Assembly: GCA_964606745.1 (NCBI GenBank)
Contig: CAZSHJ010000002.1
Coordinates: 2,629-66,628 of the forward strand
Length of the DNA stretch: 64,000 nt
Source of the DNA: an uncultured Thermoplasmatales archaeon
Lineage (GTDB): Archaea > Thermoplasmatota > E2 > UBA202 > DSCA01
Reading direction: 5' to 3'
The translations under genes were made by a program, and so were the position numbers. Of the stretch, positions 3,227-46,691 are shown in pieces. The notes beneath the pieces are model-generated. The model had not been told where the DNA came from, searched no databases, and saw only the letters and a list, made by a program, of their open reading frames with translations. How positions within the stretch are numbered: position 1 is the first letter of the stretch; each line of letters opens with the position of its first letter.

Positions 3227-5278
3227 ATGAAGAAATGGGCAATATTGGTTGTTGCTATGCTCGTTGTTATCAACTTTTCTATCAGCGGCGGCACAGCAGT
3301 AAAAGAAAAAGAAATTGTTGTGGTATCTGATAGTGATGCTTTCTTTTCTTTGATTTCAACGTCTCTTGCTTTTCATGAAGGGAAGGCGCCGATGCTGCTC
3401 TTTAAAAATAATCTGACTGCACAGCAGAAATTCATTGATGATTACGGTGCTGAAAAACTGATTACCGTGGGAAAGCATGTTGATGTCTCTATTCCTACTC
3501 GGGAATTTCTGGGAGATGCAGTGGCAGTATCATTGGAAATTGCTGAATTCTTTGGGAAGAGTGATGCTGTAGTGGTTATGCCGTACAGCATGGATGAGTA
3601 CAATCTTTCCATGATAGCCACACCCATATCATGTTATCTTGATGCTCCCATACTGCTCTACAACGGGAATGATGATACAGTCCTTTCTGCCATTGGTGAA
3701 TTGCATGCAAAGAATATAATCTCCATTGGAAGCGTTCCCGTCGGAAACATCCATCTCAGAAATGAGGAGGATATCTATGGATATCTATTGGATATTAAGG
3801 ATGTAAAATATATGGCGGTAGCAAATCCAAATGACGAGGTAGAGCCCTCTGTGATGAAAAAACAGGAAACGAATTTTGGCGGACATATTAGGAACCTGCA
3901 ACTCACGCTCTTTTCACAGAAAATAAATCTTGTGGGTACGGACGAGACAACCTTTGGTATATCCGTACCAGATGGCATAAACAGAATCAAGATTTTGATA
4001 GATGTATCGAAAAAAGATTGGGCACCTTATATCATCTCCTCGGTGCTGTATGATGAAAATGGCAAAATGGTCACATATTCATTCAGCCAGGCATATGAAT
4101 TCCAGAAATGCTACATGGATGCATTGTCAATAAATGATACAGGCGATTACACACTGTCAGTAAAGTTATATCATGGGTTCAAGGGCGGTTACTTTTTACA
4201 GCGTGGCTTTTCATATGTAGATGCATCCTTCAATGTCACGGTTGAAGTGCAAAAACTGGCCTCGCCCCATTTGCCTCTTGTCCCAATTTCAAAACTTGCG
4301 CCCTATATAGCGACATACCACGACGGCATGGTTCTCTCAGCCCAGAATGAAATAACAACTGAGGCATACGGGGACATTGCATCTGGTACAGCTGGTGGTG
4401 CCTGGAACAATGTTGCCCTGCAGAAATATGTTAATAGCCAAGTCAACAAAACCGTGAATAAGATTGAAAAGTATATGGAAGATAGCATAAAATGGGTGGC
4501 TGTTGTCGGAGACACCAACATGATGCCCATGTACTACTATAATGGAAGCATGGAGGATGATTACGTAGGTTTCGGCATACCCTCTGACAACCCTTATTTC
4601 ATGAATTTCAGTGTTGCGGCTGGTAGGGTTCTGGCGATGGATGATGTTGACACTTCATTGCTCATAAGCAGGAGCCTTTTTTACGATGAGATTTGCCACG
4701 GGGAGTGGATGAAAAATTTTACGTTCATATTCGGCGAGGGTTTTGGCGAGACAGCGGGCATTTTCCATCAGATTCCTTACTCAAAAGTGGTATCCCAGTA
4801 CGGTTTTTCCACAAGAATTTTTGGGGATTTGAGAAACAGCCGCCATGCACTGGAAAGACTCAATGCGTTTGATGCAAATTATATAGAGTACGAGGGGCAT
4901 GGCGACTGGTACTGGATGTTTTCCAACATATACGGCATAAACTCCTACACCAAGGAGGTTGACTCCAGCCATGCAAAGCATTTTACCATGCAGCCAAGCG
5001 TTGTTTTGAGCGCCGCCTGTTTGATGGGACGGATAGATGGCATACCTCTCGACGAAAATATCGGGATGGCATTTATCCATGCTGGTGCGGGAGCGTTCAT
5101 AGGGGCAACCAGGGAGACGGGGCAGGAGGCGGAGCTTGAGATAATAGAGAACAGCCTTATAAAAAACAACACGAGCATAGGGGAAGCGCTTCTACAGGCA
5201 AAACTTTTCGATAAGCCCCCGACAAAATACGCCCGTGTGCTTTACGGAGACCCTGCATTCAATCCATATGAGCCATAA
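3227..5278 (+). CDS. Secreted clan CD cysteine peptidase, C25 (gingipain)-like, with N-terminal CWB2-type cell-wall-binding repeats
   Basis: Signal peptide MKKWAILVVAMLVVINF. Two to three repeats resembling clostridial cell wall binding repeat 2 (EIVVVSDSDAFFSLISTSLAFHEGKAPMLLF; AVVVMPYSMDEYNLSMIATPISCYLDAPILLYNG). C-terminal His-Gly / Ala-Cys dyad (YEGHGDWYW ... VVLSAACLMGRIDG ... GAGAFIGATRETG) as in gingipain catalytic domains. Confidence 0.7.
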   Translation: MKKWAILVVAMLVVINFSISGGTAVKEKEIVVVSDSDAFFSLISTSLAFHEGKAPMLLFKNNLTAQQKFIDDYGAEKLITVGKHVDVSIPTREFLGDAVAVSLEIAEFFGKSDAVVVMPYSMDEYNLSMIATPISCYLDAPILLYNGNDDTVLSAIGELHAKNIISIGSVPVGNIHLRNEEDIYGYLLDIKDVKYMAVANPNDEVEPSVMKKQETNFGGHIRNLQLTLFSQKINLVGTDETTFGISVPDGINRIKILIDVSKKDWAPYIISSVLYDENGKMVTYSFSQAYEFQKCYMDALSINDTGDYTLSVKLYHGFKGGYFLQRGFSYVDASFNVTVEVQKLASPHLPLVPISKLAPYIATYHDGMVLSAQNEITTEAYGDIASGTAGGAWNNVALQKYVNSQVNKTVNKIEKYMEDSIKWVAVVGDTNMMPMYYYNGSMEDDYVGFGIPSDNPYFMNFSVAAGRVLAMDDVDTSLLISRSLFYDEICHGEWMKNFTFIFGEGFGETAGIFHQIPYSKVVSQYGFSTRIFGDLRNSRHALERLNAFDANYIEYEGHGDWYWMFSNIYGINSYTKEVDSSHAKHFTMQPSVVLSAACLMGRIDGIPLDENIGMAFIHAGAGAFIGATRETGQEAELEIIENSLIKNNTSIGEALLQAKLFDKPPTKYARVLYGDPAFNPYEP

Positions 5279-5337
5279 AAATTGCAAAACGAAAGTTTTA
5301 AGGTAACAATTGCATTATAATCTTTGGAGGCAAAAAT

Positions 5338-8300
5338 ATGCGAGGAAAGAAAGTAGGCATACTTCTTTTGATTGTGGCAAGTTTGGTGATCGCATCTTTT
5401 GTTATTGCAGAGATGAAAAATGGTTTGGATATAAAAGAGGTGAGAGCAGAGCCAAATGGAGGGAACATATTGTATGTTGGTGGAACGGGGCTAGACAACT
5501 ATACAACCATTCAAGCAGCAATAGATGATGCAAATCCAGGAGATACTGTTTTTGTTTATAATGGAACGTATTACGAAAATGTGGTTGTAGATAAATCCAT
5601 TAATCTCATTGGTGAGAACAAAAATACTACTATTATCGATGGAAATGGAACGGGAAATGTTGTGAATATTAGTGCTGACTGGGTAAATATAAGTGGTTTT
5701 TCAATAAGAAATAGTGGCAGCAACTTAAGGATTTTCGGGATATTCGCCAGTGGTTATAACAATATTATCATTTTCTCTTGCATCATCTCAAATAATGACA
5801 TTGGTGTTGTCCTCAGTGGTTACAATAACACTGTTTTCTCTTGCATCATCTCAAATAATGACATTGGTGTTGTTGTCCTCAGTGGTTACAATAACACTGT
5901 TTTCTCTTGCGTTATCTCAAATAATGGTTTTGGTGTTTTCCTCAGTGGTTACAATAACACTGTTTTCTCTTGCATCATCTCAAATAATGGTTTTGTTGGA
6001 ATCAGGCTTGATTCTTCCAGTAATATCACCATTTCTAATAATACTTTTACAAATGATGGTATCACAATCGCTGGTTCTTTATCTCATTTCATTCATAGGA
6101 TTGAGAACAATACAGTAAATGGTAAATCCTTACTCTATTACAAAAATGAAAATAATGTTGTTTTGGATGGGGCTGGGACAGGACAACTAATACTGGTAAA
6201 TTGCAGCAATTTTGAAATAAAAAATATAAACATAAGCGATACACATATTGGAATAGAAGTTGCCTATTCCAGCAATATCACCGTTTCCAACTGCAACCTT
6301 TCAAACAATTATGAGGGCATCAGGCTTGAGTATTCCAGCAACACTACTATCTCCTCCTGCAACATCTCAAACAATTACGATGGCATACAGGTATATTGTT
6401 CAACCAACAATACCATTGCTGACTGTACCATTTCGAGCAACTTTAACGGTATCGGTATCGAGCTTAAGTATTCCAGCAACAACACCATTTCCTCTTGCAC
6501 CATCTCTTCAAACATTTATATCACTTATATCGGCATCCTGCTTTTTGAATCAAGCAACAACAACTTGATTTACCATAACAACTTCATTAACAACGTCAAT
6601 CAAGCATATGATGATGGTGATAACACCTGGGACAACGGTTATCCCTCAGGTGGCAATTACTGGTCTGATTTTGATGAGCCAAGCGAGGGAGCATGGGATA
6701 ATAACAGCGACGGGATTGCAGATTCACCATATTATATACCTAGTGGGAGCAATCAAGATAGATATCCACTTATAAATCCATGGAACATGACAATAAATCA
6801 GCGTCCAACCGTGAACATCGCATTTCCCTTTAATGGTTCAACAGTAAACGGAACTATCATAGTTAATGGAACAGCAAATGATACCGACAACACCATCCAG
6901 AAAGTAGAGATAAAAATAGATAACGGCTCATGGATGATAGCCAATGGAACAACATCATGGAACTATTCATGGGATACGACTACGGTCAGCAATGGAAATC
7001 ATACAATCTATGCTCGCAGCTATGATGGAGAAGACTATTCAACCATCGTGCAAGTAAATGTAACGGTGAATAATATTATACTGCCTCCGCCAAGCATTGT
7101 TTATGTCGATGATGATTTTAATGAATCTACTCCAGGGTGGCAATATGACCACTTTGATAAAATTCAGGATGGGATTGATGCAGTAGCTGATAGCACGGTA
7201 TATGTTTTCAATGGAATATATTATGAAAATGTAGTTGTGAACAAATCAATTAATCTGATTGGAGAGAACAGAAATACTACTATTATTGACGGCAGTGGCA
7301 TGGGGGATGTTGTTTATGTTTCTGCTGATTGGGTGAATATTAGTAATTTTACTATACAAGGTAGTGGAAATAGCTATCCTTTTGATATTGGGGCTGGAAT
7401 GAATATTTGTTCAAACAATAACACCATCTTTTGTAACATCTTCTCTAACAACGGTAATGGCTTAGTACTCAGTTACTCAAACAACAACTCTATAACTTCA
7501 AACCATATCTATAATAATTCTCGGGGTGTCTTACTCAGTTACTCAAACAATAATTCTATTACGGACAACTCTTTTTTAAATGACGGACTTTCTACTACGG
7601 ATTCATATCAAAATACCGTTATCAACAACACGGTTAACGGCAAACCCCTCGTGTATTTGGAAGATGAATCAGATATGGTTGTAGATAATGCAGGGCAGGT
7701 GATACTTGTCAACTGTGACAACATTACTGTCCAAAATTTAGAATTATCTAACACTACTGTTGGTATTGAATTGCAGGACTCCAACAACTGTTTTATATTT
7801 GGTAATCTCATTTCTAATAACAGGTTGGGTATGGTGTTTGATTCTTCTAGCAATAATGTAATTTCTGACTGCAATATTTTAAATAATTCTTTTTCTGAAG
7901 GCCTTGGAGTGGGCATCTCTCTCGATACTTCAGATTATAACACAATTTCAAATTGCAACATCTCACACAATGGGATAGGTATCGCATTGCTACATTCATA
8001 CCTCAATACAATTTATAACTCTGCTATTTCAAACAACTATGCTGGTTTTATCCTATTCGGAACGGGTGACAATACCGTATTCTTCAATAATTTCATTGGC
8101 AATAGATATATTACTTTTCTAAATCCTTCTACTGGGATTATATGGGGTTCTTATCGTTCATATACATACAATGGAACAAATTATACTAATCATCTTGGTA
8201 ATTATTATGATGACTATAGTGGCAATGACACAGATGGAGATGGAATAGGAGATATATCATATAAGATAGATGAACATAGCTATGATCATCATCCTTTAGC

Positions 8301-11300
8301 GATGCCTAAACAAAATTACATCATCTTGCCACCTCCGCAACCTCCAACTGTAAATATAACATATCCTTATAACGGAATGACACTAAACGGTACTGTTATT
8401 ATTACTGGAATAGCTGATGATATCGATGGAATTGTTCAGAAGGTTGAGATAAGTACTGATTTTTTTCAGTGGATAACAGCCGTAGGGACTATTTTATGGA
8501 ATTATACTTGGAATACAACCACAGTAAGCAATGGTTTCCATGTAATATCTGCTCGTAGCTATGACGGAATAGAATACTCAGATATAGCAGCAGTGATGGT
8601 AACGGTGAATAACACCTATGCTTCACTCTCTGTTGTATATGTCGATGATGATTTTAACGAATCTACTCCCAGTTGGGATTACGACCATTTCGACAACATT
8701 CAGGATGGAATTGATGTTGTTGCCGAAAATGGAACTGTATATGTTTACAATGGAACATATTATGAAAATGTTGTTGTGAATAAAACCATAAATCTCATTG
8801 GGGAAGATAGGAATAGCACAATTATAGATGGAAATGGAACAGAAAATGTTGTGAATATTAGTGCTGACTGGGTAAATATAAGTGGTTTTTCAATCAGGAA
8901 TGGTAATTGGTGTGGTATCTATACCCGTTATTCTAACAACACCACTTTAATCGGGAACATTATTAAAGATAATATAGGCAGTGGTACTCTTTCGCTTTTC
9001 TCTAACAACATTACGATATCTCATAACAGCATTTTATTAAATGGTGGAAGTGGCATAGAATTATGGAATCCAAATTTTGCCAATATATCAAACAATATTA
9101 TATCAAAAAATATACTAGATGGCATTAATGTGTCTTCATCAAGTAGCAGCACTTTTACTAGCAATTTAATTAGCAACAATACCATGTTTGGTATACGAAT
9201 GTACGACTCTTCTACAGACAATAATACTATATCTAATAACATTATCTGCAATAATGGTTACGGCATCGAACTCGCATATTCAAACAACAACACAATTTCA
9301 AACTGTAACGTTTCTAATTCCACTATAGGCATCTGGCTTAAGCAAGCGAATAATAATACGATTACTAATATTACATCATATAACAACTGGGGAGATGGAA
9401 TTCGGCTTGTGGAATCATCTTTCAATCATATAGACAGTTGTTTCGTTTTTGGAAGTCAATGGAACGGGCTGGGATTTAACTATTCCTGTAATCATAATGT
9501 GATAAAGAATTGTACTATCGCCAATAACTGGGATGGCATTCGCATTTGCACGTCGTCCCATAACAGTATCTCCATGTGCACTTTAATAAACGAAAACAAC
9601 AATATCATATTGGATATGTCAGATTATACCGATATAGAAAAATGTGAAATAAAGGAAGGACAATCTGGCATCAAACTTGTTTATTCATCAAGCTACAACA
9701 CAATTTCTAACTGCAACATTTCAAACAATGATGAGGGCATCGATCTTGATTCCTCACCCAACAACGAAATCCACTATAACAATATTTATGGAAACAGTGA
9801 ATATGGTATTAGAAATTGGAACAGCGAGTTGCAATACGTGGTAAATGCCGCCTACAATTATTGGGATTTCCTGTCTGGTCCTTATCATCCAACGTTGAAT
9901 CCTACCGGAACGGGCGATAATGTAAGCGACAACGTTGATTTTATTCCTTGGCTTACTGCACCAGTAATAGGCGGAATGGAAGGAACTTTAACTGAGGGAG
10001 AAAATGAAGTCGATGCAATTGATGAGGCAGATACAATTATAGAAATAAATGCTACGGCAAACAACAGTATGAGAATTATTTCTTACGAAGAAGCACCTGT
10101 TGAAGAGCCAGAAGTTGTTAAATCAATAGGAAAATATATTGAGATAGAAGTAGAAAATGAAACTGCTGTTGAATGGCCAATATTCATTCAAATTTATTAC
10201 ACGCAGGAAGATTTAGATAATACCGGAATAACAGAAAATCAAATTATTGGAATTTATTTTTACAATGAAAGCAGTGGCGAATGGGAACTTTACAACGATG
10301 CGGGAGTCAACACAACCGATATCATGGTTAGTAGAAAACAATATGCTGGCTATGTATGGGCAAATGCATGGCATCTCACCAATATGACCATAGGTGCTGA
10401 TAATAACCCTCCAGAAATAAGCAATGTTGATGCAAATCCAGAAAGCCAAGAAATAAATGGATATGTGAATATATCTTGTGTTGTTACAGATAATATTGAA
10501 ACATCAGAAGTTTTTGTTAACATAACATATCCTGATTCAACTTACCACAATCTTTCAATGGTAAATATCGCAGGAAGTGATATCCATTATTACAATGCGT
10601 CTTATTCATCAGAAGGAAATTATGAATACTTCATTTGGGCAAGTGATACAAGTGCAAATGCAAATGTCTCATCAAAGAAATCGTTTTCTGTATTTATTCC
10701 GCAATACACATTAAATATTTTAGTTTCTCCAGAAAGTGCAGGAACTGTTACCCTTAGTCCATCCGGTGGAACATACGATGAAGGAACTGTAGTTACCGTA
10801 ACTGCTCATGCTAATACAGACTATGAATTTAATCATTGGTCTGGAGATGTTTCCAGTAGCAATCCAACAGTGCAAATCACGATGGACAGCGATAAAAGTA
10901 TAACTGTTAATTTCACTGAGAACCCTCCTCATCAGTACACATTAACAGCATCTGTTGACCCATCCGGAAGTGGAAGCATTACATTGAATCCTCTTGGTGG
11001 AACGTATGATGAGGGAACCACCGTTACTGCAACAGCCAATCCAAATACTGGCTATGAATTTGATCATTGGTCAGGAGATGCAAGTGGAATAACAAGCAGC
11101 ATACAAATTACAATGGATAGTGATAAAAGCATAACTGCCCATTTCTCAGTCATACAATACACTCTTACAACATCTATCACTCCATCTGGAAGCGGGTATG
11201 TTACTTTGAATCCAACTGGTGGAACATATGATGAAGGAACTGTTGTGACTGTTACTGCTCATGCAAACTCTGGGTATGAGTTCGACCATTGGTCAGGAGA

Positions 11301-14580: not shown

Positions 14581-14617
14581 ATTCCAATAAGTTTTATTAC
14601 CTGAGAAATATTCTGCT

Positions 14618-19085: not shown

Positions 19086-19121
19086 TCTCTATTTTGGCAA
19101 TATTATTTTTATATTATGAAA

Positions 19122-19337: not shown

Positions 19338-19366
19338 TTTATCATATTATCAAATACGACTTTGGT

Positions 19367-19606: not shown

Positions 19607-19660
19607 TATTTAAGTTTGTGCATCTGCTTTATGCTGCAATCATTTTTAGTAAACAAAGCA

Positions 19661-20032: not shown

Positions 20033-20173
20033 ATTATATAGTATATCGAAACTCTAGTATTTAAGTGTTTCCCCAAGATGTGTTATAGATAACCTTGCCA
20101 CTCTATATCAATAATAGCCTCAGGTATTAAATAGTTTTCTTTTATCCATACTCAACAAGTATTCACCATCCAT

Positions 20174-28322: not shown

Positions 28323-28324
28323 TA

Positions 28325-29090
28325 TTATGCGTGTGCCTTTATCCAGTCGACTATCGTTTTGTGAATTTCATCGGCCCATTCTGGGTCTTCGAATATTTCG
28401 TGATATGCCCCCCTAAATTCCCTCAGCGTTTTATCTTCGATCTTTAACTCCTGCATGAATTCACGTGCTCCCTTTATCGGTGCCAGTACATCTGCCGTTC
28501 CATTCAAAATCAGCACGGGTACGGTGATATTTTCAGCTTCTAAATGGGTCTTCTTCATGTGGACAAAAAGGCTTCTTGCAAGTGCGATAGAAATGCGGTC
28601 ATGCACCAGCGGATCATTGATGTAATTTTCAACGGTTTCTTTATTTCTTGAAAGTGTTTCCGGTTTTATTGTGTTGTTAATCGTCGCAGATGGCATGATT
28701 GCACCTAAAAATTTGGCAAGTCCGACGAAATCTTGAGGTATTATCGCCGTGGGCGAGAGCAGGTGCTGAGGCTATCATTCCCTTAATTCTACTGGGGTAA
28801 AGTTCGGCATATCTGATGGCTGTGACCCCCCCGAGGCTGTGCCCAAGAATAAATGGTTTTTTGTTAATCTCATCTATTATTTCGTTTATTATGCCAAGGG
28901 CATCCTCAACTCTTGCATGCCCCCTCTTTCCATCGCTTTTTCCGTGTCCCGGCCAATCGAAGGTATAGACGGCAAAACCTTCGTCGTTGAGCATTTTGAT
29001 GAGCCCCTCATATCTTCCGCAGTGCTCTCCAAGCCCGTGCACGGTTATGACCCAATCCTTGCCCTTCCCGAATTTTGTTTTGTATATCAT
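28325..29090 (-). pseudogene. Alpha/beta hydrolase (lysophospholipase/monoglyceride-lipase-like) split by a frameshift
   Basis: ORFs 28677..29090 (HGLGEHCGRY...GHSLGG...SAPAL) and 28325..28696 (C-terminal Asp/His region) are two halves of one ~255-aa hydrolase in different frames. Could also be a sequencing error. Confidence 0.6.
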
Positions 29091-29209: not shown

Positions 29210-29905
29210 ATGTTAATCATGCTCGTTTTCATTCACGGGATGTTATCCAATGCTAGCGTATGGGACCCCGTCATCACTTATTTTAATGAGAGGGGCTTTT
29301 CATGCAATGCGGTAAATTTAAAAGAAGGATTGGATTTGAGGAAAACACGTTTTCAGGATTACGTGGATAAAGTAAAGGCAGTGGTAACAGAAGATGATAT
29401 AGTAATCGGGCATTCAATGGGCGGCTTGGTCGTCCAGAAGGTGGCGGAGGAAGCCGATATAAAGGGCGGCGTTGGCATATGCCCTGCAGCACCAAAGGGA
29501 GTCAAGTTTCGTGGTGATATTGTGCTATCCTCTGCCAAGTATGCACTAAAAGTTATCATGGGAAAACCGTTTAAAGAAGATTATCCGTATGTTAAAAAAT
29601 ATATGTTAGTCGGGGTAGGAGAAGAAGAGGCGAGAGCCATCTACAAAAAATTGGAAAAACAATCGGCAATTGTTACGCATGAACTGGGGATGAACAAGAT
29701 AGCGGTAGATGAAAATAAAGTGAATTGTCCCCTCCTCTTCATTGCAACAAAGAATGATAAGGTATGTGCCCCCGAACTGGTTAAGAGAATTGCAGAAAAA
29801 TACAATGCAGAATACAGGTTATATAACGGTTGCCATCATTTTTTTTGTAATGACAATTGGCAAGACATAGCAGAGGAAATCCACAAATTTATAACAAAAT
29901 TATAG
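29210..29905 (+). CDS. Alpha/beta-fold hydrolase
   Basis: 231 aa. VFIHGM oxyanion region and GHSMGG nucleophile elbow. Confidence 0.75.
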   Translation: MLIMLVFIHGMLSNASVWDPVITYFNERGFSCNAVNLKEGLDLRKTRFQDYVDKVKAVVTEDDIVIGHSMGGLVVQKVAEEADIKGGVGICPAAPKGVKFRGDIVLSSAKYALKVIMGKPFKEDYPYVKKYMLVGVGEEEARAIYKKLEKQSAIVTHELGMNKIAVDENKVNCPLLFIATKNDKVCAPELVKRIAEKYNAEYRLYNGCHHFFCNDNWQDIAEEIHKFITKL

Positions 29906-30854: not shown

Positions 30855-31811
30855 ATGCCGAGAAAAAGTCTTGCTTTAGGAGTGATATTTGGGGTTGTCG
30901 TACTTTTATCAAGTTCTGTACTTTCCCCAGTTGCAGATGCATTGGATTGGGGGGCTATGAGTGCTTCTCCTAATGTTACCCCTTATTATATCGACAGATA
31001 CGGGAGTGGCTCTCTGACGCTTACCGTGAGTTATAGTGCCTTCTTTTTCCAGTACTTTCCGGTGTGGGTGGAGATAAATATTATTAACTGTCCGAGTTGG
31101 CTTACTGTTACCCCAGCGCAGAAAAACTTCGTGTTGCAGAAGGCAGAGAGCAAAGCTGTCAAGATAGGTCTGACTCTCAATCAGCAGGATGTTGAGGCAG
31201 GCAACATGCAGGTTGTAGAATTTGAGGTTACCGGTAGGATAATTCTGGGTGGAGAACTGAGGCAGGTGGCGACGGGTAAGGCGGATATACAGGTGGGTGT
31301 AAATCCATATACCCAGATAACTCTCGAGATTGCAAAGCCAATAGAAAGGACAGCCCCTGACAGGGAATTAACATTTCCTATCACTGTGAAAAACTGGGGG
31401 AATGCACAGACAACCGTTACATTAAGCCTGACAGATGACCCCGGAAAATGGAGGTACATAATAAACCCACAGCAGATTATTTTATCTCCTAAAAAATCCG
31501 GCGATTCGAATCCGACGGAACAGGTGGCATCACTGACACTTACATCGCCTCACGGAGCCGTCATTTCATACCACAACGACTGGCAGGGAATTGCAATACA
31601 GGCAGTGGCAAGAACGGATGGCAAGTATTACATTCTACAGGGTGATCATTTCGAAGTTTCCCAGCAGGATAAGGAGAAAGTTACGATTTTCAATGGTTAT
31701 GCAACCATGCTTGCAAAGAACAAGGGATTTTATGTTCCGGGTTTCGATTCAATATTGCTCATAGGGGCGCTGGTTTCAATAGTGTTGATGATGAGGCGGA
31801 AGAGGCAGTGA
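30855..31811 (+). CDS. Secreted surface protein with PGF-CTERM sorting signal (hypothetical)
   Basis: Signal peptide. C-terminus VPGFDSILLIGALVSIVLMMRRKRQ (PGF + TM + basic tail). Confidence 0.75.
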   Translation: MPRKSLALGVIFGVVVLLSSSVLSPVADALDWGAMSASPNVTPYYIDRYGSGSLTLTVSYSAFFFQYFPVWVEINIINCPSWLTVTPAQKNFVLQKAESKAVKIGLTLNQQDVEAGNMQVVEFEVTGRIILGGELRQVATGKADIQVGVNPYTQITLEIAKPIERTAPDRELTFPITVKNWGNAQTTVTLSLTDDPGKWRYIINPQQIILSPKKSGDSNPTEQVASLTLTSPHGAVISYHNDWQGIAIQAVARTDGKYYILQGDHFEVSQQDKEKVTIFNGYATMLAKNKGFYVPGFDSILLIGALVSIVLMMRRKRQ

Positions 31812-33670: not shown

Positions 33671-34243
33671 ATGACTACAAAACCAGTTGTAATTAAGTTC
33701 TTTGCTCCTGTCATTGATGTCACAATTAATGCTCTAATGGCTGCTATTGATCAGAAAATGAAGCAAGGGATAACAGATTTTATAATCCTAATTTCATCAC
33801 CTGGTGGCTCAGTTTTTCACGGTTTAAGCGCATACAATTATTTGAAAGGATTACCTGCCACAATAACTACGCATAATTTCGGTAGTGTGGACTCAATAGG
33901 TGTTGTTCTATATTGTGGTGGTTCAAAAAGGCTATCAGTACCTCAGGCAAGATTCTTACTTCATGGTGTTAGTACCAACTTTGAACAGAAGACAAGCTTA
34001 GAAGAAAAGCAATTAGAAGAGAGATTGAAAGGATTAAGAATCGACATTGAGAATATCGCAAAAGTAATTGCAGCAAATACGGGTAAAAGCGTGGAAGCCG
34101 TGACGGATGCGATGCTTGAACGGACAACATTGAATCCTGAAGAAGCACAATCTTGGGGTCTTGTGAACGAAATTAAATCAGATCTCTTTGAAGCGGGTAG
34201 CGAAGTGATTTCGATTCAATTTCAACAACCACAAAAACCGTAA
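33671..34243 (+). CDS. ClpP-family (S14-like) serine protease, stand-alone
   Basis: FIILISSPGGSVFHGLSAYNYL...FGSVDSIGVVLYCGGSKRLSVPQARFLLHGV...EEAQSWGLVNEI aligns with ClpP [22 protein letters not shown]...GQAASMGAFLL...RVMIHQP...EAVEYGLVD. Strong RBS aggaga. Confidence 0.75.
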   Translation: MTTKPVVIKFFAPVIDVTINALMAAIDQKMKQGITDFIILISSPGGSVFHGLSAYNYLKGLPATITTHNFGSVDSIGVVLYCGGSKRLSVPQARFLLHGVSTNFEQKTSLEEKQLEERLKGLRIDIENIAKVIAANTGKSVEAVTDAMLERTTLNPEEAQSWGLVNEIKSDLFEAGSEVISIQFQQPQKP

Positions 34244-34441: not shown

Positions 34442-35968
34442 TTGCCGTTACATTACATTTCTGATATTATGATAGAGAAGAAGATGCTATCCATACTCGT
34501 TCTTTTTGTATTGGTAGTGCCTGTTGGAATTACGACCAATTTTTTCAATGCCGGTGAGGGAAAAGAATCCAGTACTGTCTATGGCGAATTTCATCAAGCG
34601 GGTAGTGCATTCGTTCCACCTGACAACATCACCGTGGTGGTGGACGTTATGCGTCTTCGTGCCATGACGCTTTGTGACGACAACCCCGGATTTTATTTCA
34701 AGATATTCATAAACGGCGAGAATTCCATGTGGATGGACCAAGTTGTCAATGGCAAGGACATATGGTTTGAGTGGCCCACTGCTGCCGCGACAATCCCGTA
34801 CGATGTCAATAAAACCGTTATCATACAGATAGAGGTATTGGAAGAACGCAGGGGGCAGGATGCTCAGTGCGATATAAGCAAGGAGAAGGGTCCGTATGAG
34901 GGCGGGAAAACCGTTACCCTTTTCTATGATATGAAAAGAGGAGAGTGGACAGGTGACGATTATCTCAAGGATGGAAACGGATACGGCCATTGCTCCGGTT
35001 TTGAGGACGGGAGCGAGGACGAGAATGACTGCGAGATATGGTTCGATGTTTATCAATGGGGTGAAGATGGGTGGTGGGGCGATGAAGACCGTTTGACTTA
35101 CTGGGAAAAAGTCCATGTTTACAAACTAAACGGCTCGGAGAATTATGGTAGAGAGGATTTCAACGGCGACGGCATACCAATGTATTGGGAGGACAAATAC
35201 GGATTTGACCCGTTTGCCGAAAGCAATGTCTCGCAGCAGGATCCTGACAAGGACGGGTTGACAAATTTCGAAGAGTGTAAAACATCTCAGTGGCTTTCAG
35301 ACCCGTTTGCCCAAGATGTATTCGTGGAAGTGGATGGCATGCAGGCCAAACATTCATGGCAGGATCCATATATGTTGCCCAAGGAGTCTCAAAATCTGAT
35401 ATGCAATCCGTTTGCCAGGCATAACATCACGCTTCACATAGACGACGGCATCATGTGCGGCGGCGGGGATTTGATTCCGTATGACGACGGTATGAGCAGC
35501 AAGGATTTGATGGCTGCCCGGTACAAGTATTTCCTCAATGAAGATGAGAATAACTGGAAAAGGGGAGTTTTCCATTGTGCCATCGTATGTAACCAGATGG
35601 AGTGGTACGGCCGACCGGCGGGCGGGAGAATGTTCTACACAGACAGCCATTGTGTTGGCGGGCAGTATGTTCGGAACTGGGCATGGGCATTCTATCTGCA
35701 GGGAAGCAGCTATTACAAGGCATTTGCAAGCGTGTTCATGCATGAACTTGGTCACACTCTTGGCTTGCTCGGTTTTGAAGGTATAGACAATGAAAATAGC
35801 AGATTTCTATGGTATAAAGAGTACTGGGATTGGGGCACGTACAGAAGCTGTATGAACTACCGCTATGTGTACAAACTGGTAGATTATTCAAGCGGTGATG
35901 ATGATGACTATGATCAGGATGACTGGGCCGCGCTTGACTTGACCCGCTTCACTGGAGAGGGTTGGTGA
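34442..35968 (+). CDS. Secreted zinc metalloprotease (HExxH, metzincin-like) with Ca-binding aspartate-rich repeats
   Basis: Signal peptide (MLSILVLFVLVVPVG; true start probably 34484). DPDKDGLTNFEE TSP3-like motif. C-terminal FMHELGHTLGL zinc-binding motif. Confidence 0.75.
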   Translation: MPLHYISDIMIEKKMLSILVLFVLVVPVGITTNFFNAGEGKESSTVYGEFHQAGSAFVPPDNITVVVDVMRLRAMTLCDDNPGFYFKIFINGENSMWMDQVVNGKDIWFEWPTAAATIPYDVNKTVIIQIEVLEERRGQDAQCDISKEKGPYEGGKTVTLFYDMKRGEWTGDDYLKDGNGYGHCSGFEDGSEDENDCEIWFDVYQWGEDGWWGDEDRLTYWEKVHVYKLNGSENYGREDFNGDGIPMYWEDKYGFDPFAESNVSQQDPDKDGLTNFEECKTSQWLSDPFAQDVFVEVDGMQAKHSWQDPYMLPKESQNLICNPFARHNITLHIDDGIMCGGGDLIPYDDGMSSKDLMAARYKYFLNEDENNWKRGVFHCAIVCNQMEWYGRPAGGRMFYTDSHCVGGQYVRNWAWAFYLQGSSYYKAFASVFMHELGHTLGLLGFEGIDNENSRFLWYKEYWDWGTYRSCMNYRYVYKLVDYSSGDDDDYDQDDWAALDLTRFTGEGW

Positions 35969-36918
35969 GCAGTTTCATGAAGGTGCAAATATTTTCTTTT
36001 GTTCTCCTTCTTTTTTTTCTCAGCTCATTCTCTGGCTGCCTGAGTGATAGTGATAGAGATAATGACGGGCTGTACGACAGTGTAGAGGAGAAGGGATGGG
36101 ATATTGGTGTAACCTATGTAGGTGAAGATTTAAGCAAGGCAGTTCATGTCACGTCCAGTACCCATAAAAAAGATACAGATGGCGATGGGTTGACCGATTA
36201 TCAGGAGTGGTCATCCTCTGTCGGCGGATGCGTAACAAATCCCAGAGAAAAAGACTCAGATGGCGATGGGTTGACCGATTACGAGGAGATAATAGTATAT
36301 GGAACAGACCCTCTGCACTGGGCGGATGATATAGACAAGGACAATGTATGGTGGAACGGCGATTATGAGGAGATAGAGTATTACCGGGGCAGGGGAATCG
36401 ATGATGCCACTATAAGGCAATTTTTAAACAATTCGGATGTTGACGGAGACGGTATCAAAGACGGGAATGACATCGATCCTCTTAGCGACCTTGAAGTCAG
36501 GATAACAATAGAAGGTGTAAAAGTAACCTCTGATATGGATGATAATGATGATCTGCTAGAAACAGTCTTTGACATTGTAACGGACGGGGAATCGAACTCC
36601 TCGACAATGATATATGTCCCTGTGGGGGTTAACTATTCTGTAAATATGAGTTTTAATGTCGATTTGAATGATATGGGCATTCCCGGGGAGTACAACAACA
36701 GCATATCCCTTGATGTCATAGATGAAGATAAGGGTCTGGAACGCAAGCCGCTGGACGTAGATGGTTTTCCCGGCATGGACGTGGTAAAAATTGTCCCTTC
36801 AGGCGGGTATGCAAGAAATGATTTCAACATCAACTCGGACTGCAGGCATTATCATTTGAGTGGTACGGACGGTGAGATTTGGTTCAGCATAGAAGATGTC
36901 AGCACCCCGTGGTCTTAA
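35962..36918 (+). CDS. Lipoprotein-like secreted protein with thrombospondin type-3-like Ca-binding repeats
   Basis: Lipobox-like FSGC. DTDGDGLTDYQE and DSDGDGLTDYEE repeats. Probable start at 35977 (MKVQIF). Confidence 0.7.
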   Translation: MVSSFMKVQIFSFVLLLFFLSSFSGCLSDSDRDNDGLYDSVEEKGWDIGVTYVGEDLSKAVHVTSSTHKKDTDGDGLTDYQEWSSSVGGCVTNPREKDSDGDGLTDYEEIIVYGTDPLHWADDIDKDNVWWNGDYEEIEYYRGRGIDDATIRQFLNNSDVDGDGIKDGNDIDPLSDLEVRITIEGVKVTSDMDDNDDLLETVFDIVTDGESNSSTMIYVPVGVNYSVNMSFNVDLNDMGIPGEYNNSISLDVIDEDKGLERKPLDVDGFPGMDVVKIVPSGGYARNDFNINSDCRHYHLSGTDGEIWFSIEDVSTPWS

Positions 36919-41333: not shown

Positions 41334-41787
41334 ATTTATCTGCCCTAAACTGCATTTTAATTTGTTTATGACACAATTAAAGTAATTTGAACAATAACAT
41401 ATGACGTATGACGCATTAACTGCCATATTTGTCGGGCTTGGCAAAAAGCAATACCCAGAATGGGTCTCTATCTCTGAGGGGCGGAATGCCCCTATTATTT
41501 TTCATTTGTTGAGTTTTGAAGGTGCCGTAAGCTAGGTATTATTGATGATTTGAGTGAATCGGAATAAAATGATACTGAGCATAAAGTGCACACAAATCTC
41601 TTACATCCATTCCATGACCCTCATATCAAAAGAAATACTTGCTACATGTTAGCGTGGTAATGTAAACCAAACTATTAAATATTATTTTTTTATTTTCTTT
41701 ATTGGTTGGGAGAAGTGAAGCCGTGGTTTAGTTAGTAGTAGTCTGGCTTTTTCTGGCAAAATATACAAAAAAGAGGAGGAGAAAAAA

Positions 41788-44700
41788 ATGAAAAAGATAG
41801 GCAAGATTATGATGTGTCTGCTGGTAGCAGCAGTTTTTGTGGTGCCTCTTATACCACTGGAAAATATGGTGGAAGCTAATAATAGTACAGATTATAAATT
41901 GTTAATAATCGGTCCAGACGAATTCGCAGATGAAATGATTATGTTAAGGGATCATAAGGATTCCATTGGTATACCAGCCCTAGTGGTTGGCTTGAAACAA
42001 ATAGATACTATGTGGGGTAATGCTGGTGTTGATGAACCTGAGCAAATTAAAAAATGTATTGAACATTATGAGAAAGAATTTGACATTGAATATGTTTTGC
42101 TAGTCGGTGATTGTGATAAATTCCCTGTGAGATATACTGCCAGCTGCGTTGACTATGCTGATGAACCCGTTGAAATTTTATTTGCAAATACTGATTTGTA
42201 TTACGCTGATTTATATTATGATTCATGGCTCAAACTTTTTGATGATTGGAATTCCAGGAAACAAGGTATTCACATGCAATATTTTGGTGAAGTTTATAAA
42301 AAAGATCCAATAAATTATGATAACTTTGATGGGTTTCCCGATATTGCCGTGGGCAGAATTCCTGCATCAACAGCCAATGAAGTAGAAACATACGTAAAGA
42401 AAGTTATCAACTATGAGCTTAATTATCCCACCAGCAAAAACGTGTTTATAGCCGAAAAGGATGGAGTTGAATCAACTCAGGAAAGCCTTGACCATGCAAA
42501 GGATTTGGCAGAACATTTTAAAAAGAATGGTTTCCTCCCAGAAGTTTACTACTTCGGCGAATTAGAAAAATACAATACTGCTGATAAAATTGTGGCATCA
42601 AATCAAAGGGCTCCTTTGATTAATGGTTATCTATCTATGTCCCTGTTTGCGAGTTTTTGGGGACACGCTTCACCAACAGGATGGAGTTGGTATGATCATC
42701 CAGATCTAAACACGCTGAGCAATAAAGATAATTTACCCATCATATTTTCTAATGGATGTGACATAGCTCGATTTGCCCCAAAAGAAGGGGAGCCATATAT
42801 AGGTATTAATGGAGACGAATGGTGGAGAACTGGTCAGCTTGTGATGTATTATGATTATGATGATCATTCGAATTTGATTACCATACATAGTGATGAAAAA
42901 TATGATAGCACAAAAACTACAGAAATACGATTAGCACAAGGGGATATAGTTGACTCGAATGACAACCAGCAAGAAGCAGTATATGTTGTTGAGACATACG
43001 AGGAAGATATACATAAAGTGGCATTAATGGTTTACCATCATGGATCAAAATTCGAACGCCAAGGTTTTTATCTTAAAAGATTTGAAAATGCATATAATCC
43101 AGATGTTGCCACTGGTAATTTTGATACTGATCCAGAAGATGAGGTTGCTGTTACTTATGAATATGGTAACGGAAACGTCATCATTTCGTTTTATGATTTA
43201 GTTGATGCATATGCTAAAACAACTGGGAAAAAGTATCAAACATTTAGTTGTGTTGGATCCATATTGTTAAATGATTGTTCACATCCACGTGTTACCACAG
43301 GGGATTTTACCTCAGATTCTTCTCAGGATGAACTTGTTGTTTCGGTGATAGATGGTAATGGAAAGCTTGCTATCTTTACATATGAAATTAATAAGGTTCA
43401 TGGGATTGAGTATGCATATCGTCGGATAAGTGATATCAGACTTGATATTACATGGAGAGAATATCTTCCTGAAGATACTTTTGTTCCAATGGTTGCAGCA
43501 GGAAATCTAGATTCTGGAGACCCTAAAGATGAAATAGTTACAACCTTTATTGATGAACAGGAGAGATTAGCTGTTCTCGCATTCGATTTCCTGGGGCCCA
43601 ATAATATAGTTAGAATTGGCGATATTCGACTTGAAGATGCACAGAATGCCGATGTTACAATGGGAGATTTTAATAATGATCAAGTTGATGACATTGTGGT
43701 AACCTTCGAAGATGGACTTGGGAGGGTAGGTATTCACGTATATAATTATAATAATGCACAACCCTCAATTGATAAAAGGTTACAAGAAAGTGGTGATGTT
43801 CGACTCAATGATGCCTCCAATCCAACGGTTTCCGTGGGTAATTTCGATTCAGATTCCTCTAAAGAAATAGCTGTTTTTATGATAGATGGCTCGACTCAGG
43901 GTGCTGTTTTTGTGTACGACTATGTTGGAATAAATAATCTTAAACGGTTAAGTTCTTTTAGGGAAAAGCAGACAATAAACCCTTTTATACCCTTGGATAT
44001 TGTGTGCGGTAATTTTGATCATGAAATAAATATCGATGAAATTGTTACCTATTTTTATCGTTCTGCACATATTCTACCAAATCCTCCTGTTTCTGTTCAG
44101 CCTTCAAAATTTGATGTTGAATCAATGGCGGAAGATTTTCTTGTCAAAAGCAATAATGGGGCAATAGTATTTATAGGCTCTAACACGGGCGCTCAAGAAT
44201 ACGCTACAGACCTTGGCGATCTTTTTTTTGAGGCCTACCTTGACAAAGCCATCGATGTTGTTGGCGATATGTGGAATTATGCGGTTGCTGAGTACTATAA
44301 GGTCCACGATCCTGCAACTATTAAACAGGTAGAAAATTGTTTGGAAGATCCTAATAAAGTATGTTATTATAAATGTACTGAGTTATATCAACCAGCGAAA
44401 TTACATTTTTTTGGTGATCCATCGATAGTGGTGGGGGGATTAACGCAAAATTCTGGATCAACGCAAAATACCGAATTATTTATAACTCATGATACAACAA
44501 TGGCTCCTATTGAATACAACAACGTTACCATAAAAATAATGAATTCTGATATTGTTTTAGATTGCAATGGTGCAACAATTCAGGGAAGAGGCACAGGCTC
44601 TGCAATTGAAATATCAAAGGGAATTAATGATGTTACAATCAAGAATGGCATCATAAAGAATTATAATTACGGAATTCATTGTTCTTCCAATAACAACAAA

Positions 44701-45279
44701 ATACTGAATAATCTTATTACCTCAAACAAATATGGTCTCAACCTCAATAGCTGTGAAGCAAATAAAATTGAGAATAACTCTGTGACTTATAATGAGTATG
44801 GTATGGGTCTATATGATTCTTCAGGTAATTCAATGGTAAACAACATATTGGCTGATAATACCGAAGAAGACATATATTTATCTAATTCTCCAGATAACAC
44901 CATATTTAATAATGCTCAATATAAATCGCCGATAGCGAGCTTTGAGTATTCGCCGAAATCGCCAGTTGAAGTCAACACAACGGTGTTCTTTACTGATACA
45001 TCTGTTGATACTGATGGGATTATCGAAGATTGCACATGGTATTTTGAGGATGGGACGGTCGTCTATGAAACGGCAACTAGTTATACTTTTACCGAGGCTG
45101 GGGAACATTCTGTAACTGTTACGGTTACTGATGATGACGGAGCAACAGCTAGGTATACTGCAACAATCGAGGTGACGAAGGAAGATGTAGATGATAATAC
45201 GCCCGGGTTTACACTCTTGCTGTGTATTGCAGCAATTTTCATCATTATACAGCAAAAGAAGAAGGGAGGTAAAAAATGA
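41788..45279 (+). CDS. Large surface protein: C25 (gingipain-like) peptidase domain with ~450-aa FG-GAP-repeat insertion, beta-helix repeats, PKD domain and PGF-CTERM
   Basis: Signal peptide. C25-like N-terminus (KLLIIGPDEF ... YVLLVGDCDKFPV). His-Gly/Cys motifs FWGHASPTGWSW and IFSNGCDIARF, then GAIVFIGSNTGAQ ~460 aa later. Six FG-GAP-like repeats (TGDFTSDSSQDELVV, MGDFNNDQVDDIVV, VGNFDSDSSKEIAVF ...). NosD-like rungs (NGIIKNYNYGIHCSSNNNKILNN). PKD-like domain. C-terminus TPGFTLLLCIAAIFIIIQQKKKGGKK. Strong RBS aagaggaggag. Confidence 0.8.
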   Translation: MKKIGKIMMCLLVAAVFVVPLIPLENMVEANNSTDYKLLIIGPDEFADEMIMLRDHKDSIGIPALVVGLKQIDTMWGNAGVDEPEQIKKCIEHYEKEFDIEYVLLVGDCDKFPVRYTASCVDYADEPVEILFANTDLYYADLYYDSWLKLFDDWNSRKQGIHMQYFGEVYKKDPINYDNFDGFPDIAVGRIPASTANEVETYVKKVINYELNYPTSKNVFIAEKDGVESTQESLDHAKDLAEHFKKNGFLPEVYYFGELEKYNTADKIVASNQRAPLINGYLSMSLFASFWGHASPTGWSWYDHPDLNTLSNKDNLPIIFSNGCDIARFAPKEGEPYIGINGDEWWRTGQLVMYYDYDDHSNLITIHSDEKYDSTKTTEIRLAQGDIVDSNDNQQEAVYVVETYEEDIHKVALMVYHHGSKFERQGFYLKRFENAYNPDVATGNFDTDPEDEVAVTYEYGNGNVIISFYDLVDAYAKTTGKKYQTFSCVGSILLNDCSHPRVTTGDFTSDSSQDELVVSVIDGNGKLAIFTYEINKVHGIEYAYRRISDIRLDITWREYLPEDTFVPMVAAGNLDSGDPKDEIVTTFIDEQERLAVLAFDFLGPNNIVRIGDIRLEDAQNADVTMGDFNNDQVDDIVVTFEDGLGRVGIHVYNYNNAQPSIDKRLQESGDVRLNDASNPTVSVGNFDSDSSKEIAVFMIDGSTQGAVFVYDYVGINNLKRLSSFREKQTINPFIPLDIVCGNFDHEINIDEIVTYFYRSAHILPNPPVSVQPSKFDVESMAEDFLVKSNNGAIVFIGSNTGAQEYATDLGDLFFEAYLDKAIDVVGDMWNYAVAEYYKVHDPATIKQVENCLEDPNKVCYYKCTELYQPAKLHFFGDPSIVVGGLTQNSGSTQNTELFITHDTTMAPIEYNNVTIKIMNSDIVLDCNGATIQGRGTGSAIEISKGINDVTIKNGIIKNYNYGIHCSSNNNKILNNLITSNKYGLNLNSCEANKIENNSVTYNEYGMGLYDSSGNSMVNNILADNTEEDIYLSNSPDNTIFNNAQYKSPIASFEYSPKSPVEVNTTVFFTDTSVDTDGIIEDCTWYFEDGTVVYETATSYTFTEAGEHSVTVTVTDDDGATARYTATIEVTKEDVDDNTPGFTLLLCIAAIFIIIQQKKKGGKK

Positions 45280-46691
45280 AAATTAAAAGAATCAAAGACA
45301 AATCCGTGCTAATAAAGAAAAAACTGCCGAATGTTATTATCTTTTTTTTGTTGCTTTGCTCCGTATGTACTATTTCGGGGTGCCTTGAAACTACAACGGA
45401 GATTGTGAACATCATGGAGCTTAAAGGCCCTGATTGGCAAGACTATATCGATAAAGAAGTTACTGTTGAAGGTATTTTCGTTAAAGACCCTCTTCCTATG
45501 TTGGTAACTACTCTGGATATAATGAAGACCAATCTCGAATTGCCTGACGAACACTTCATACGTTTATCGGGTGTACCAATTCAAGAAATAACACCAGAAA
45601 AGTATGGGGGCAGAGAACTGCGAGTTAAAGGTGTGATTAAGGTAATTGGTAACGATAATGATACCCACGTTAATTTAACAAAGTCATTAATGGGATTAGA
45701 CGTTGTTTCGTTTGAGTCCATCAGACTAGTGGACGAATATAATCCGGAGATACAGTCAATTGAAATACATCCTGATTCTCATTTTTCTCAGGCAGATAGA
45801 TATGCCATACTATTTAGCGGTGGTGGAAAGCACACTTCAAATCATGTACGGTACTGGAATGATTTAAAATTTATGTATAGTACGTTGGTAAATGAATATA
45901 AGTACTCAGAAGATTTGATAGTGGTTCTCTATGCTGATGGGACTGGCCGCGATAGTCAAATTCCGGTACATTATGCAGCAACACAAACAAATCTAGAAAC
46001 TGTTTTTGGGTTACTACGGGAAAGTTCAACGACTGAAGATCAAATATTTTTTTATACAACGGACCATGGGGGCGGGTTCTGTAAGAATGGAATAATTAGC
46101 ATGGGCAAAGTATACTATATATGTGGCGGTCGCCATGATTCAGATGGGGATGAAGGAATAACGGACACTATTTCCGAATCAGCATATAATCTAGATCTCA
46201 ATGATGACGGATTAATTTCGGGTAGTGTTTCCTGGGATGAAGAACTACGCAGTTGGGGGGGCCACATTATCGATGATTCTTTTGACGGTATGCTTGCCAA
46301 TTTAAACTATAATAAAATGATTATTGTTATGGAGCAGTGTTTCAGCGGAGGTCTTATTGCTGATATGGCACGGAGTGGTAATAACAGAATCATCATGTCG
46401 GCTGCTGGTGAATACGAGCCATCGGAGGCAATGCCACCAGATTATAACTACAACGAGTTCGTCTACTATTTTACTTGTGCCGTTAATAGAGAAACACCTG
46501 CTGGATTATCGGTAAACGCTGATTATGACGGCGATGGTGACATTTCAATGGTTGAGGCTTTCAACTATGCGAGAAACCATAACACGCGTTCAGAGACACC
46601 ATGGTACGAGGATAGCGGTGATGGTGTTCCCCATTCTGGAGAAATGCCATCTCAGGGTGAAGGACTCTTAGGAAGCGATACAACATTGTAA
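45276..46691 (+). CDS. Lipoprotein, clan CD cysteine peptidase, C13 legumain-like
   Basis: Start overlaps the preceding stop (ATGA). Lipobox-like ISGC. QIFFYTTDHGGG and IIVMEQCFSGGL match the legumain FxxDHG / EACESG His/Cys dyad context. Confidence 0.75.
   Translation: MKIKRIKDKSVLIKKKLPNVIIFFLLLCSVCTISGCLETTTEIVNIMELKGPDWQDYIDKEVTVEGIFVKDPLPMLVTTLDIMKTNLELPDEHFIRLSGVPIQEITPEKYGGRELRVKGVIKVIGNDNDTHVNLTKSLMGLDVVSFESIRLVDEYNPEIQSIEIHPDSHFSQADRYAILFSGGGKHTSNHVRYWNDLKFMYSTLVNEYKYSEDLIVVLYADGTGRDSQIPVHYAATQTNLETVFGLLRESSTTEDQIFFYTTDHGGGFCKNGIISMGKVYYICGGRHDSDGDEGITDTISESAYNLDLNDDGLISGSVSWDEELRSWGGHIIDDSFDGMLANLNYNKMIIVMEQCFSGGLIADMARSGNNRIIMSAAGEYEPSEAMPPDYNYNEFVYYFTCAVNRETPAGLSVNADYDGDGDISMVEAFNYARNHNTRSETPWYEDSGDGVPHSGEMPSQGEGLLGSDTTL

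Follow-up and report, generated by a model that had tools for sequence, protein, structure and literature searches.

The window analysed here is a 64-kb stretch of DNA (contig CAZSHJ010000002.1, positions 2,629 to 66,628) from an uncultured Thermoplasmatales archaeon, and our subject is the set of peptidase, hydrolase and surface-protein genes that it carries. The gene map was compiled from an open reading frame (ORF) listing and Pfam and NCBIfam scans, and comprises ~54 genes. The listing and the scans identified the window as a segment of an archaeal chromosome. The archaeal markers are class I lysyl-tRNA synthetase (LysRS), pyruvoyl arginine decarboxylase and PurP. Genes for oxidative stress (ferritin, peroxiredoxin, desulfoferrodoxin, rubrerythrin, FprA-like and Fur) form a cluster, and the further housekeeping genes include those for NAD kinase, ACS and glycerol kinase as well as a complete his operon. 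No Rfam family and no tRNA was found in the window. All of the genes listed by an earlier note on this DNA, which had read them as a window-wide enrichment of secreted hydrolases and archaeosortase substrates, were confirmed at their stated coordinates (Table 1). They are interspersed among the housekeeping genes.

By the protein of its first listed gene (C25a), the window was traced to contig Ga0315543_1000224 (71.5 kb) of JGI metagenome 3300031651. Relatives of the window were compared by tblastn, and their loci are labelled L003 to L098. The best 80 LysRS loci were all from metagenome-assembled genomes (MAGs) of uncultured Thermoplasmatota from sediments and vents. LysRS identity is 81% to the closest MAG, 61% to M9B1D and 57% to SG8-52-3, the latter two being Thermoprofundales MAGs. 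The contig probably belongs to the order of MBG-D (Marine Benthic Group D)/Thermoprofundales.

Table 1. Peptidase, hydrolase and surface-protein features of the window, with positions counted from its first nucleotide
Feature	Position	Strand	Basis
C25a, exported C25 (gingipain-family) cysteine peptidase homolog, 683 aa, catalytic domain residues 397-679	3227..5278	+	PF01364 61.5 bits, E 1.1e-16
Giant adhesin-like surface protein, 2244 aa	5338..12072	+	NosD/beta-helix (8 stretches), Big_7 (4), InlB B-repeat (3), Gmad2 (Pfam); C-terminal PGF-like anchor signal
Lipase-like alpha/beta hydrolase, exported or N-terminally anchored, 541 aa	20174..21799	-	PGAP1 24.4, Lipase_2 20.3, DUF676 22.3 bits, all at cutoffs (borderline)
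Secreted papain-family (C1) cysteine peptidase, C-terminal Big_7-like domain, 374 aa	21859..22983	-	PF00112 134.8 bits vs 20.7 cutoff, E 5.9e-39
Hydrolase_4-type alpha/beta hydrolase, frameshift-split	28325..29090	-	two ORFs match PF12146 profile positions 4-122 and 134-239
Alpha/beta hydrolase, 231 aa, no signal peptide (cytoplasmic)	29210..29905	+	PF12146 and PF12697 matches
PGF318, surface protein, 318 aa, choice-of-anchor-T-like domain, PGF-like C-terminal anchor signal	30855..31811	+	NF041740 E 1.1e-10, below cutoff
sec584, type-I membrane protein, 584 aa, signal peptide, choice-of-anchor-T-like ectodomain, transmembrane segment	31852..33606	+	NF041740 E 2.9e-14
Stand-alone ClpP-fold serine protease homolog, 190 aa, cytoplasmic	33671..34243	+	PF00574 79 bits vs 20.2 cutoff, E 4.5e-22
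Secreted metzincin-fold HExxH protein, N-terminal C2-like beta-sandwich, TSP3-like Ca-binding repeats	34442..35968	+	
Lipobox-bearing TSP3-repeat protein, putative lipoprotein	35962..36918	+	PF18884 E 7e-13; N-terminus ...LSSFSGC
Low-GC island, 6.75 kb, between convergent ends of NAD kinase and flavodoxin genes	41334..48088	.	GC 0.35-0.39
C25b, exported C25 peptidase, 1163 aa, FG-GAP-like insert, NosD beta-helix, PKD, PGF-like C-terminal anchor	41788..45279	+	PF01364 147.3 bits vs 23 cutoff, E 9.7e-43
C13 (legumain-like) cysteine peptidase, 471 aa, lipobox signal, N-terminal OB-like domain	45276..46691	+	Pfam match over only 52 residues
Collagen-like, N-terminally anchored protein, 315 aa, C-terminal domain of unknown kind	46861..47808	+	two runs of six GXY triplets, residues 37-54 and 81-98

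The GC content at third codon positions (GC3) of the core genes is ~0.45-0.57. Among the 15 listed genes, five had a GC3 below 0.40, namely those for the giant adhesin-like protein (0.32), the ClpP-like protein (0.29), C25b (0.28), the C13 peptidase (0.35) and the collagen-like protein (0.38). The remaining ten are host-like (0.42-0.55). Thus, the claim that most of these genes sit in lower-GC patches was not borne out. A rank test of the listed against the other genes gave P 0.17, and P 0.007 when the his operon was left out. At three places (5338-12072, 33671-34243 and 41334-48088), deviant composition coincided with absence of the segment from the orthologous site. As judged from these comparisons, the three segments are strain-specific low-GC insertions of surface and protease genes. 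The proposal of an accessory, laterally mobile repertoire therefore holds for the giant gene, for that of the ClpP-like protein and for the three genes of the island (C25b, C13 and collagen-like), which have low GC and are absent at the sites in close relatives. It does not hold for the C1 and lipase-like genes (syntenic, 51-64% identical), for the metzincin-fold and TSP3 genes, or for C25a, which is common to the nearest genome at 80% identity.

In L083, L085 and L095, the order aminotransferase-methyltransferase-flavodoxin-NAD kinase is found free of the 6.75-kb island. The stop codons of the flavodoxin and NAD kinase genes are 3 bp apart in L095, and ~490 bp lie between the methyltransferase and NAD kinase matches in L083 and L085. 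Since the island is absent and the stop codons are 3 bp apart in relatives, the segment 41334-48088 is an insertion between convergent genes. The sole flanking repeat near the island (16 of 18 positions matching) lies away from the island boundaries and is at chance level.

C25b possesses the clan CD dyad. In a phmmer alignment to RgpB (4ief_B/1cvr_A; E 1.7e-6), H293 and C324 fall on His211 and Cys244, with fwGHasptgW on ytGHGSETAW and sngC on dvaC. Between residues ~430 and 760 (42900-44100), six or seven GNFD.D..DE[IV] repeats lie inside the catalytic domain and split the Pfam match. These FG-GAP/VCBS-like repeats probably form a beta-propeller. Homologs of C25b carry PF01839/PF13517, and the insert architecture occurs in few distant homologs (P0257, P0258 and P0260). 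The nearest non-self homolog is 33-38% identical. Like the gingipains RgpB and Kgp of P. gingivalis, C25b combines the clan CD domain and its His-Cys dyad with a multidomain, surface-retained architecture and a predicted cleavable C-terminal sorting signal. However, it differs from gingipains and PorU in its very low identity, in its FG-GAP-like insert, beta-helix and PKD, in its occurrence in an archaeon without a type IX secretion system (T9SS), and in having a PGF-like transmembrane (TM) anchor instead of the T9SS C-terminal domain. An assignment of C25b as the T9SS sortase PorU was rejected, because NF033707 gave 62 bits against a cutoff of 420, the DNA is that of an archaeon and none of the T9SS components was found.

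The C13 gene overlaps the stop codon of C25b by 4 bp. Sequence comparison of the C13 protein with the PDB gave nothing useful; a legumain-type caspase-like fold with the conserved His and Cys was found by fold search. The His-Gly and Cys catalytic motifs are invariant, as in the legumain family (MEROPS C13). Identity to legumain is only 17-18%, and a lipobox signal of prokaryotic type and an N-terminal OB-like domain set the window protein apart from it. Its nearest database homologs are 55-58% identical, and some of them are bacterial. In keeping with the insertion, the closest homologs of C25b and C13 are more distant than that of the inherited metzincin-fold protein (80%). By its predicted model, the C13 protein is almost as similar to two transpeptidases, OaAEP1 and GPI transamidase, as it is to legumain. 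For the third protein of the island, matches to Scl-type adhesins and phage tail fibres are confined to the GXY region, and NF038329 scored 23.9 bits against a cutoff of 325.

The flavodoxin gene that abuts the island (48089-48540, minus strand) has an in-frame TAG at the position where the L095 ortholog (161 aa) has Arg. This codon indicates a pseudogene or a sequencing error, and a recoded codon is much less likely.

On the LysRS side of the window, C25a has an N-terminal hydrophobic signal (Kyte-Doolittle value 2.79) and a GC3 of 0.47. Its putative dyad motifs, YEGHGDW (GHG, H558) and SAAC (AAC, C598), were identified by eye only, and no match to PDB sequences was obtained even at E 10. In L003, the order is LysRS, C25a (80% identity), polyprenyl synthase and GlcD, and the giant protein is absent. 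In L005, L006, L009 and L010, LysRS directly abuts GlcD, and hence C25a is missing from them. C25a thus appears to be a genus-level gene, common only to the nearest relative. The giant gene, 60 bp downstream of the end of C25a, appears to be a strain-specific low-GC insertion.

The ClpP-like gene appears to be a single-gene low-GC insertion; at that site, L092 has p508 and sec584 merely 70 bp apart. Scores against the NCBIfam ClpP equivalogs (51-67 bits) were far below the cutoffs of 228-360. Phage prohead proteases match the protein just as well (PHROG head-maturation protease, E 7.7e-23); despite this match, no other viral genes were found near the gene. Among solved structures, the closest is PDB 9uxt, a 'Clp protease' of 183 aa (E 1.6e-19), which ranks ahead of canonical ClpPs. 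Since the 9uxt alignment begins at residue 7, the N-terminal residues belong to the fold and do not form a signal. By eye, the Ser and His motifs of the triad are present, and the Asp position reads Thr. No Clp ATPase was found within the window.

The C1 peptidase and the lipase-like protein, in contrast to the insertions, appear to form an inherited locus. The order DUF1614-lipase-C1 is kept in L005, L006, L009 and L010 at 51-64% identity (51-64% for the lipase-like protein and 61-64% for the C1 peptidase). GC3 is 0.52 for the C1 gene and 0.47 for the lipase-like gene. The C1 peptidase has a signal peptide, and its Cys/His/Asn triad was recognised by eye in the motifs CPSCEAYA, GGHLV and KNSWG. 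The lipase-like protein has an AHSMGG elbow motif, and PDB lipases match it at E 0.008-0.45. A 1.1-kb AT-rich spacer (19086-20173; GC 0.31) containing two or three small hydrophobic minus-strand ORFs separates DUF1614 from the lipase gene; it is ~150 bp in L005, L006 and L009.

The metzincin-fold and TSP3 genes also appear to be inherited together. PurP-TSP3-metzincin is kept in ten relatives' loci, the two genes overlap by 7 bp, and the TSP3 orthologs (42-78% identical) always lie beside the metzincin gene. The true start of the metzincin gene is probably an internal ATG near 34469-34484. The protein had no sequence-level match in Pfam, NCBIfam or the PDB, and the metzincin fold was found by fold search. 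Its nearest database homolog is 80% identical. At least 150 homologs, all 'hypothetical', were found in Thermoplasmatota MAGs, to which the family seems to be restricted. HExxH and a Met-turn-like motif, SCMNY, are invariant across the homologs, and the HExxH peptidase of the earlier note is thus upheld as a metzincin-fold protein. These features, HExxHxxG and the invariant Met-containing turn, are shared with the metzincins (archaemetzincin, adamalysins and ulilysin/pappalysins). The window protein differs from them in its N-terminal C2-like domain and TSP3 repeats, and in the lack of His/Asp at the canonical third-ligand position (HExxHxxGxxH/D). Its sequence there is HELGHTLGLLG, and the family consensus is variable or Gly; the third zinc ligand may lie elsewhere in the protein. 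Among the family members (P0001-P0120), some are fused to NosD beta-helix domains.

Upstream of this pair, the two choice-of-anchor-T-like genes adjoin metzincin/TSP3 in some relatives only. L092 has sec584-PGF318, with 53% identity and a similar tail for PGF318 and 49% for sec584. A sec584 ortholog is also present in L098 (32%). PGF318 is absent in L087 and L088, which carry other genes at the sec584/PGF318 site. In L088, the place that sec584/PGF318 occupy in the window, immediately past the metzincin gene, is taken by an integrase-like ORF (13731-14774). This ORF hints at recurrent integration beside the metzincin-TSP3 pair. The anchors of the two paralogs differ, with a TM segment in sec584 and the PGF-like signal in PGF318. 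In sec584, the TM segment near residues 263-300 is followed by a predicted cytoplasmic tail of ~280 aa that is extremely K/R/E-rich.

Export was judged by a hydrophobicity scan for an N-terminal segment preceded by Lys/Arg. Such a strong segment was detected in 11 of the 14 listed proteins, and in none of the core enzymes, the alpha/beta hydrolases or the ClpP-like protein. Therefore, the description 'secreted hydrolases' applies to six of nine (the two C25 peptidases, C13, C1, the metzincin-fold protein and the lipase-like protein) and not to the ClpP-like protein and both alpha/beta hydrolases. Lipobox-like ...SGC motifs are present in the C13 and TSP3 proteins.

The C-termini of the giant protein, PGF318 and C25b read IPGFE, VPGFD and TPGFT, each followed by a hydrophobic helix (TM-like segments at residues 2215-2233, 291-309 and 1136-1154) and a K/R cluster. 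This tripartite layout of PGF motif, helix and basic tail on large surface proteins is that of the PGF-CTERM/archaeosortase A system of Haloferax volcanii and methanogens. However, the tails fail the PGF_CTERM model TIGR04126. The best score was 9.6 bits against a cutoff of 24.5 (giant tail), and the other two gave no match at E <= 1. The canonical assignment was therefore rejected. The best model was Heimdall-CTERM (NF045529; cutoff 24), which one of the three reaches. As isolated 40-aa tails, the giant protein (IPGFELILLVGAIVAVLLMGRRKPNL) scored 27.2, PGF318 (YVPGFDSILLIGALVSIVLMMRRKRQ) 23.8 and C25b 14.9 bits, and in the full-length proteins the first two scored 20.1 and 18.3 bits. Thus, of the three supposed PGF-CTERM proteins, the motif-TM-basic layout stands and the family name does not. 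Similar xPGF tails were found four times in 1.9 Mb of relatives' loci, as compared with three times in the window, and since four such tails occur in the relatives' DNA the signal is considered a lineage feature. No PGF-like tails were found among the homologs of the metzincin-fold and C13 families.

The extracellular peptidase repertoire of MBG-D was reportedly addressed by Lloyd in 2013. Thermoprofundales MAGs each have 27-54 extracellular peptidases, or 13-24 per Mb (Zhou 2019 Table S3, PMC6461988). Per MAG, C25 genes number 10-21 in total, extracellular C25 6-15 and extracellular C01A 3-7, and C13 was found in one of eight MAGs (PMC6461988). Extracellular C25, C11, C10, C13 and C01A peptidases are described as the defining genomic feature of MBG-D/Thermoprofundales, with C25 and C01A highly transcribed (PMC6461988). 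C25 genes have also been reported on predicted plasmid fragments in 27 genomes (Liu 2022, PMC9585477). The window agrees with this repertoire in its C25, C01A and C13 families, many of them with signal peptides and PKD domains, in C25 as the most expanded cysteine family and one known from predicted mobile fragments, and in habitat, phylum and a GC of ~42-43%, as in MAGs M9B2D, M11B2D and 3300003432D. It differs in that the M09B collagenases that dominate the published MAGs are absent from the window, and in that its metzincin-fold family is missing from the published MEROPS tables, because the family has no Pfam or MEROPS-type annotation. Secreted-peptidase richness is thus an already known lineage trait, and the loci of the window form no single system.

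To place the local density against this background, the number of exported peptidases expected by chance was calculated from the published Thermoprofundales densities. In 43.5 kb, 5 were observed against 0.6-1.0 expected (~5-8x the average). The Poisson P was 3e-4 to 4e-3, and 0.02-0.24 after correction for ~55 windows per genome. For C25 genes, two were observed against 0.32 expected (P 0.04). In the 1.9 Mb of relatives' loci, tblastn detected C25-like sequence at 4 places, and neither C13 nor ClpP-like genes. These results show a real but modest local enrichment, made up of independent loci and marginal after multiple-window correction. Of the proposed window-wide enrichment, the unusually high number of secreted protease and surface genes is retained, whereas its unity is not, as several unrelated loci contribute. 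The earlier note had named in advance, as evidence that would count against it, comparable peptidase density throughout the genome and in all relatives, together with a uniform composition. The first was found, in that the relatives' peptidase repertoires are comparably rich genome-wide, yet a third of the genes differ in composition.

The clustering may also have no biological meaning, since with 30-50 genes for exported peptidases in every 2-3 Mb of the lineage a 43-kb stretch holding five is expected somewhere, and this one was selected post hoc. The window-corrected probabilities agree with this explanation, although the uncorrected ones do not. At least five separate loci with different histories contribute, and the count is inflated by three of the nine listed hydrolases, which are cytoplasmic. 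However, PGF-tailed proteins are ~30x denser in the window than in the 1.9 Mb of relatives' loci, and three independent surface/protease insertions in 45 kb suggest that the region tolerates or attracts such cargo. We therefore regard a purely meaningless clustering as distinctly unlikely.

On balance, the window is probably ordinary chromosome of an uncultured sediment Thermoplasmatota of the MBG-D/Thermoprofundales type, in which the hot spot consists of independent, juxtaposed pieces. On this reading, the exported proteins would cross the membrane through N-terminal Sec-type signals and would be retained at the surface by the C-terminal xPGF-TM-basic signal, a lipobox cysteine or an N-terminal anchor. 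An archaeosortase-like enzyme encoded outside the window would presumably cleave the C-terminal signal and attach a lipid. The cysteine and zinc endopeptidases would then cleave external proteins near the cell, for peptide uptake and/or surface remodelling, and the repertoire would turn over as foreign genes of lower GC enter intergenic sites.

Several points weigh against this reading. The background densities were taken from other MAGs. The order-level placement draws on a single marker, LysRS (57-61% similarity to the named Thermoprofundales MAGs). No integrase or transposase domain (Pfam), tRNA or clear direct repeat was found flanking the islands. Low GC alone does not mark a secretome gene, because the his operon is equally low. 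The anchoring chemistry is extrapolated from the layout of the tails, since no archaeosortase gene was found within the 64-kb window and the tails fail PGF-CTERM. Finally, the nutritional role of the peptidases is only presumptive, because stable isotope probing (SIP) with 13C-protein left MBG-D unlabelled; its authors warned that protein catabolism is poorly predicted by the number of peptidases (PMC9123169).

The SIP result weakens the lifestyle inference and leaves room for surface remodelling. Extracellular proteolysis with peptide scavenging, as the earlier note proposed, is the standard published reading for the lineage, but it is a genomic one, and MBG-D took up no label. Alternatively, the exported peptidases may serve mainly to mature, shed or remodel the cell's own surface proteins and not to nourish it, with C25 in a PorU-like role and C13 as a processing enzyme or transpeptidase, so that proximity to the adhesins would be functional. 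The authors of the SIP study propose cell-wall rearrangement as one use of such peptidases (PMC9123169). A gap of 60 bp separates C25a from the giant anchored protein downstream of it, although L003 has C25a without that protein. C25b is itself anchored and overlaps the C13 gene, whose predicted model is near OaAEP1 and GPI transamidase; however, the C25-C13 adjacency was not seen in the other contexts examined, and three C13 homologs lie in unrelated contexts without a C25 or anchored neighbour. The best NCBIfam match of C25b is the PorU sortase domain, but a score of 62 against 420 bits reflects generic C25 homology. We consider this alternative unlikely.

The contexts of the three C13 homologs also led us to reject a conserved C25-C13 module as a general arrangement. 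By analogy with GPI transamidase and asparaginyl ligases, C25b-C13 might still be a mobile, self-contained surface-protease module in which C13, as a transpeptidase or activator, matures or anchors C25b via its tail independently of an archaeosortase. This would be a very improbable arrangement.

A host-associated or pathogenic lifestyle, by analogy with the gingipains and the collagen-like and InlB-like adhesins of animal-associated bacteria, is suggested by domain names only (gingipain-family C25, InlB B-repeat and collagen-like adhesin similarity). The collagen-like part is merely 2 x 18 residues, and the same families are standard in free-living sediment archaea. Furthermore, the window comes from a sediment metagenome and its relatives all come from sediment, vent or soda-lake/lake metagenomes. 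The suggestion of host association thus found no support, and we give it hardly any credence.

If the reading of independent pieces is true, the window is one more case of a large, partly mobile set of surface cysteine and zinc peptidases in MBG-D-type sediment Thermoplasmatota, and such peptidases may contribute to protein turnover in marine sediments. What the analysis adds is modest: a site-by-site split of inherited and recently inserted secretome genes, a local C-terminal anchor signal that differs from canonical PGF-CTERM, and a Thermoplasmatota-restricted metzincin-fold family. As domain databases miss this family, MEROPS-based censuses of these archaea would therefore miss it as well.

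Outside the listed genes, an AbrB-like regulator and the complete his operon (hisG, D, B, H, A, F and IE) occupy 51147-57106 with a GC3 of 0.24-0.30, as compared with ~0.50 in the flanks. This block is the largest low-GC segment of the window, and no counterpart was found in 160 relatives' loci. It may be a laterally acquired biosynthetic operon.

The two remaining alpha/beta hydrolases appear to be cytoplasmic. For the one at 29210-29905, the N-terminus is the core beta-strand VFIHG, and NCBIfam esterase matches were sub-cutoff only. The other, at 28325-29090, continues in another frame at about 28730 and has no N-terminal hydrophobic segment; it is probably a pseudogene or an assembly error. 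It is part of a decayed patch (27440-29090) that also holds an FGGY_N fragment (168 aa) and a DUF1667 gene. A recent duplication of the genes at 60942-62872 was considered for the FGGY/DUF1667 fragments (27.4-28.3 kb) and rejected. Since their identity to the intact glycerol kinase and DUF1667 genes there is just 26% and 37%, respectively, the patch is regarded as an old paralogous cluster.

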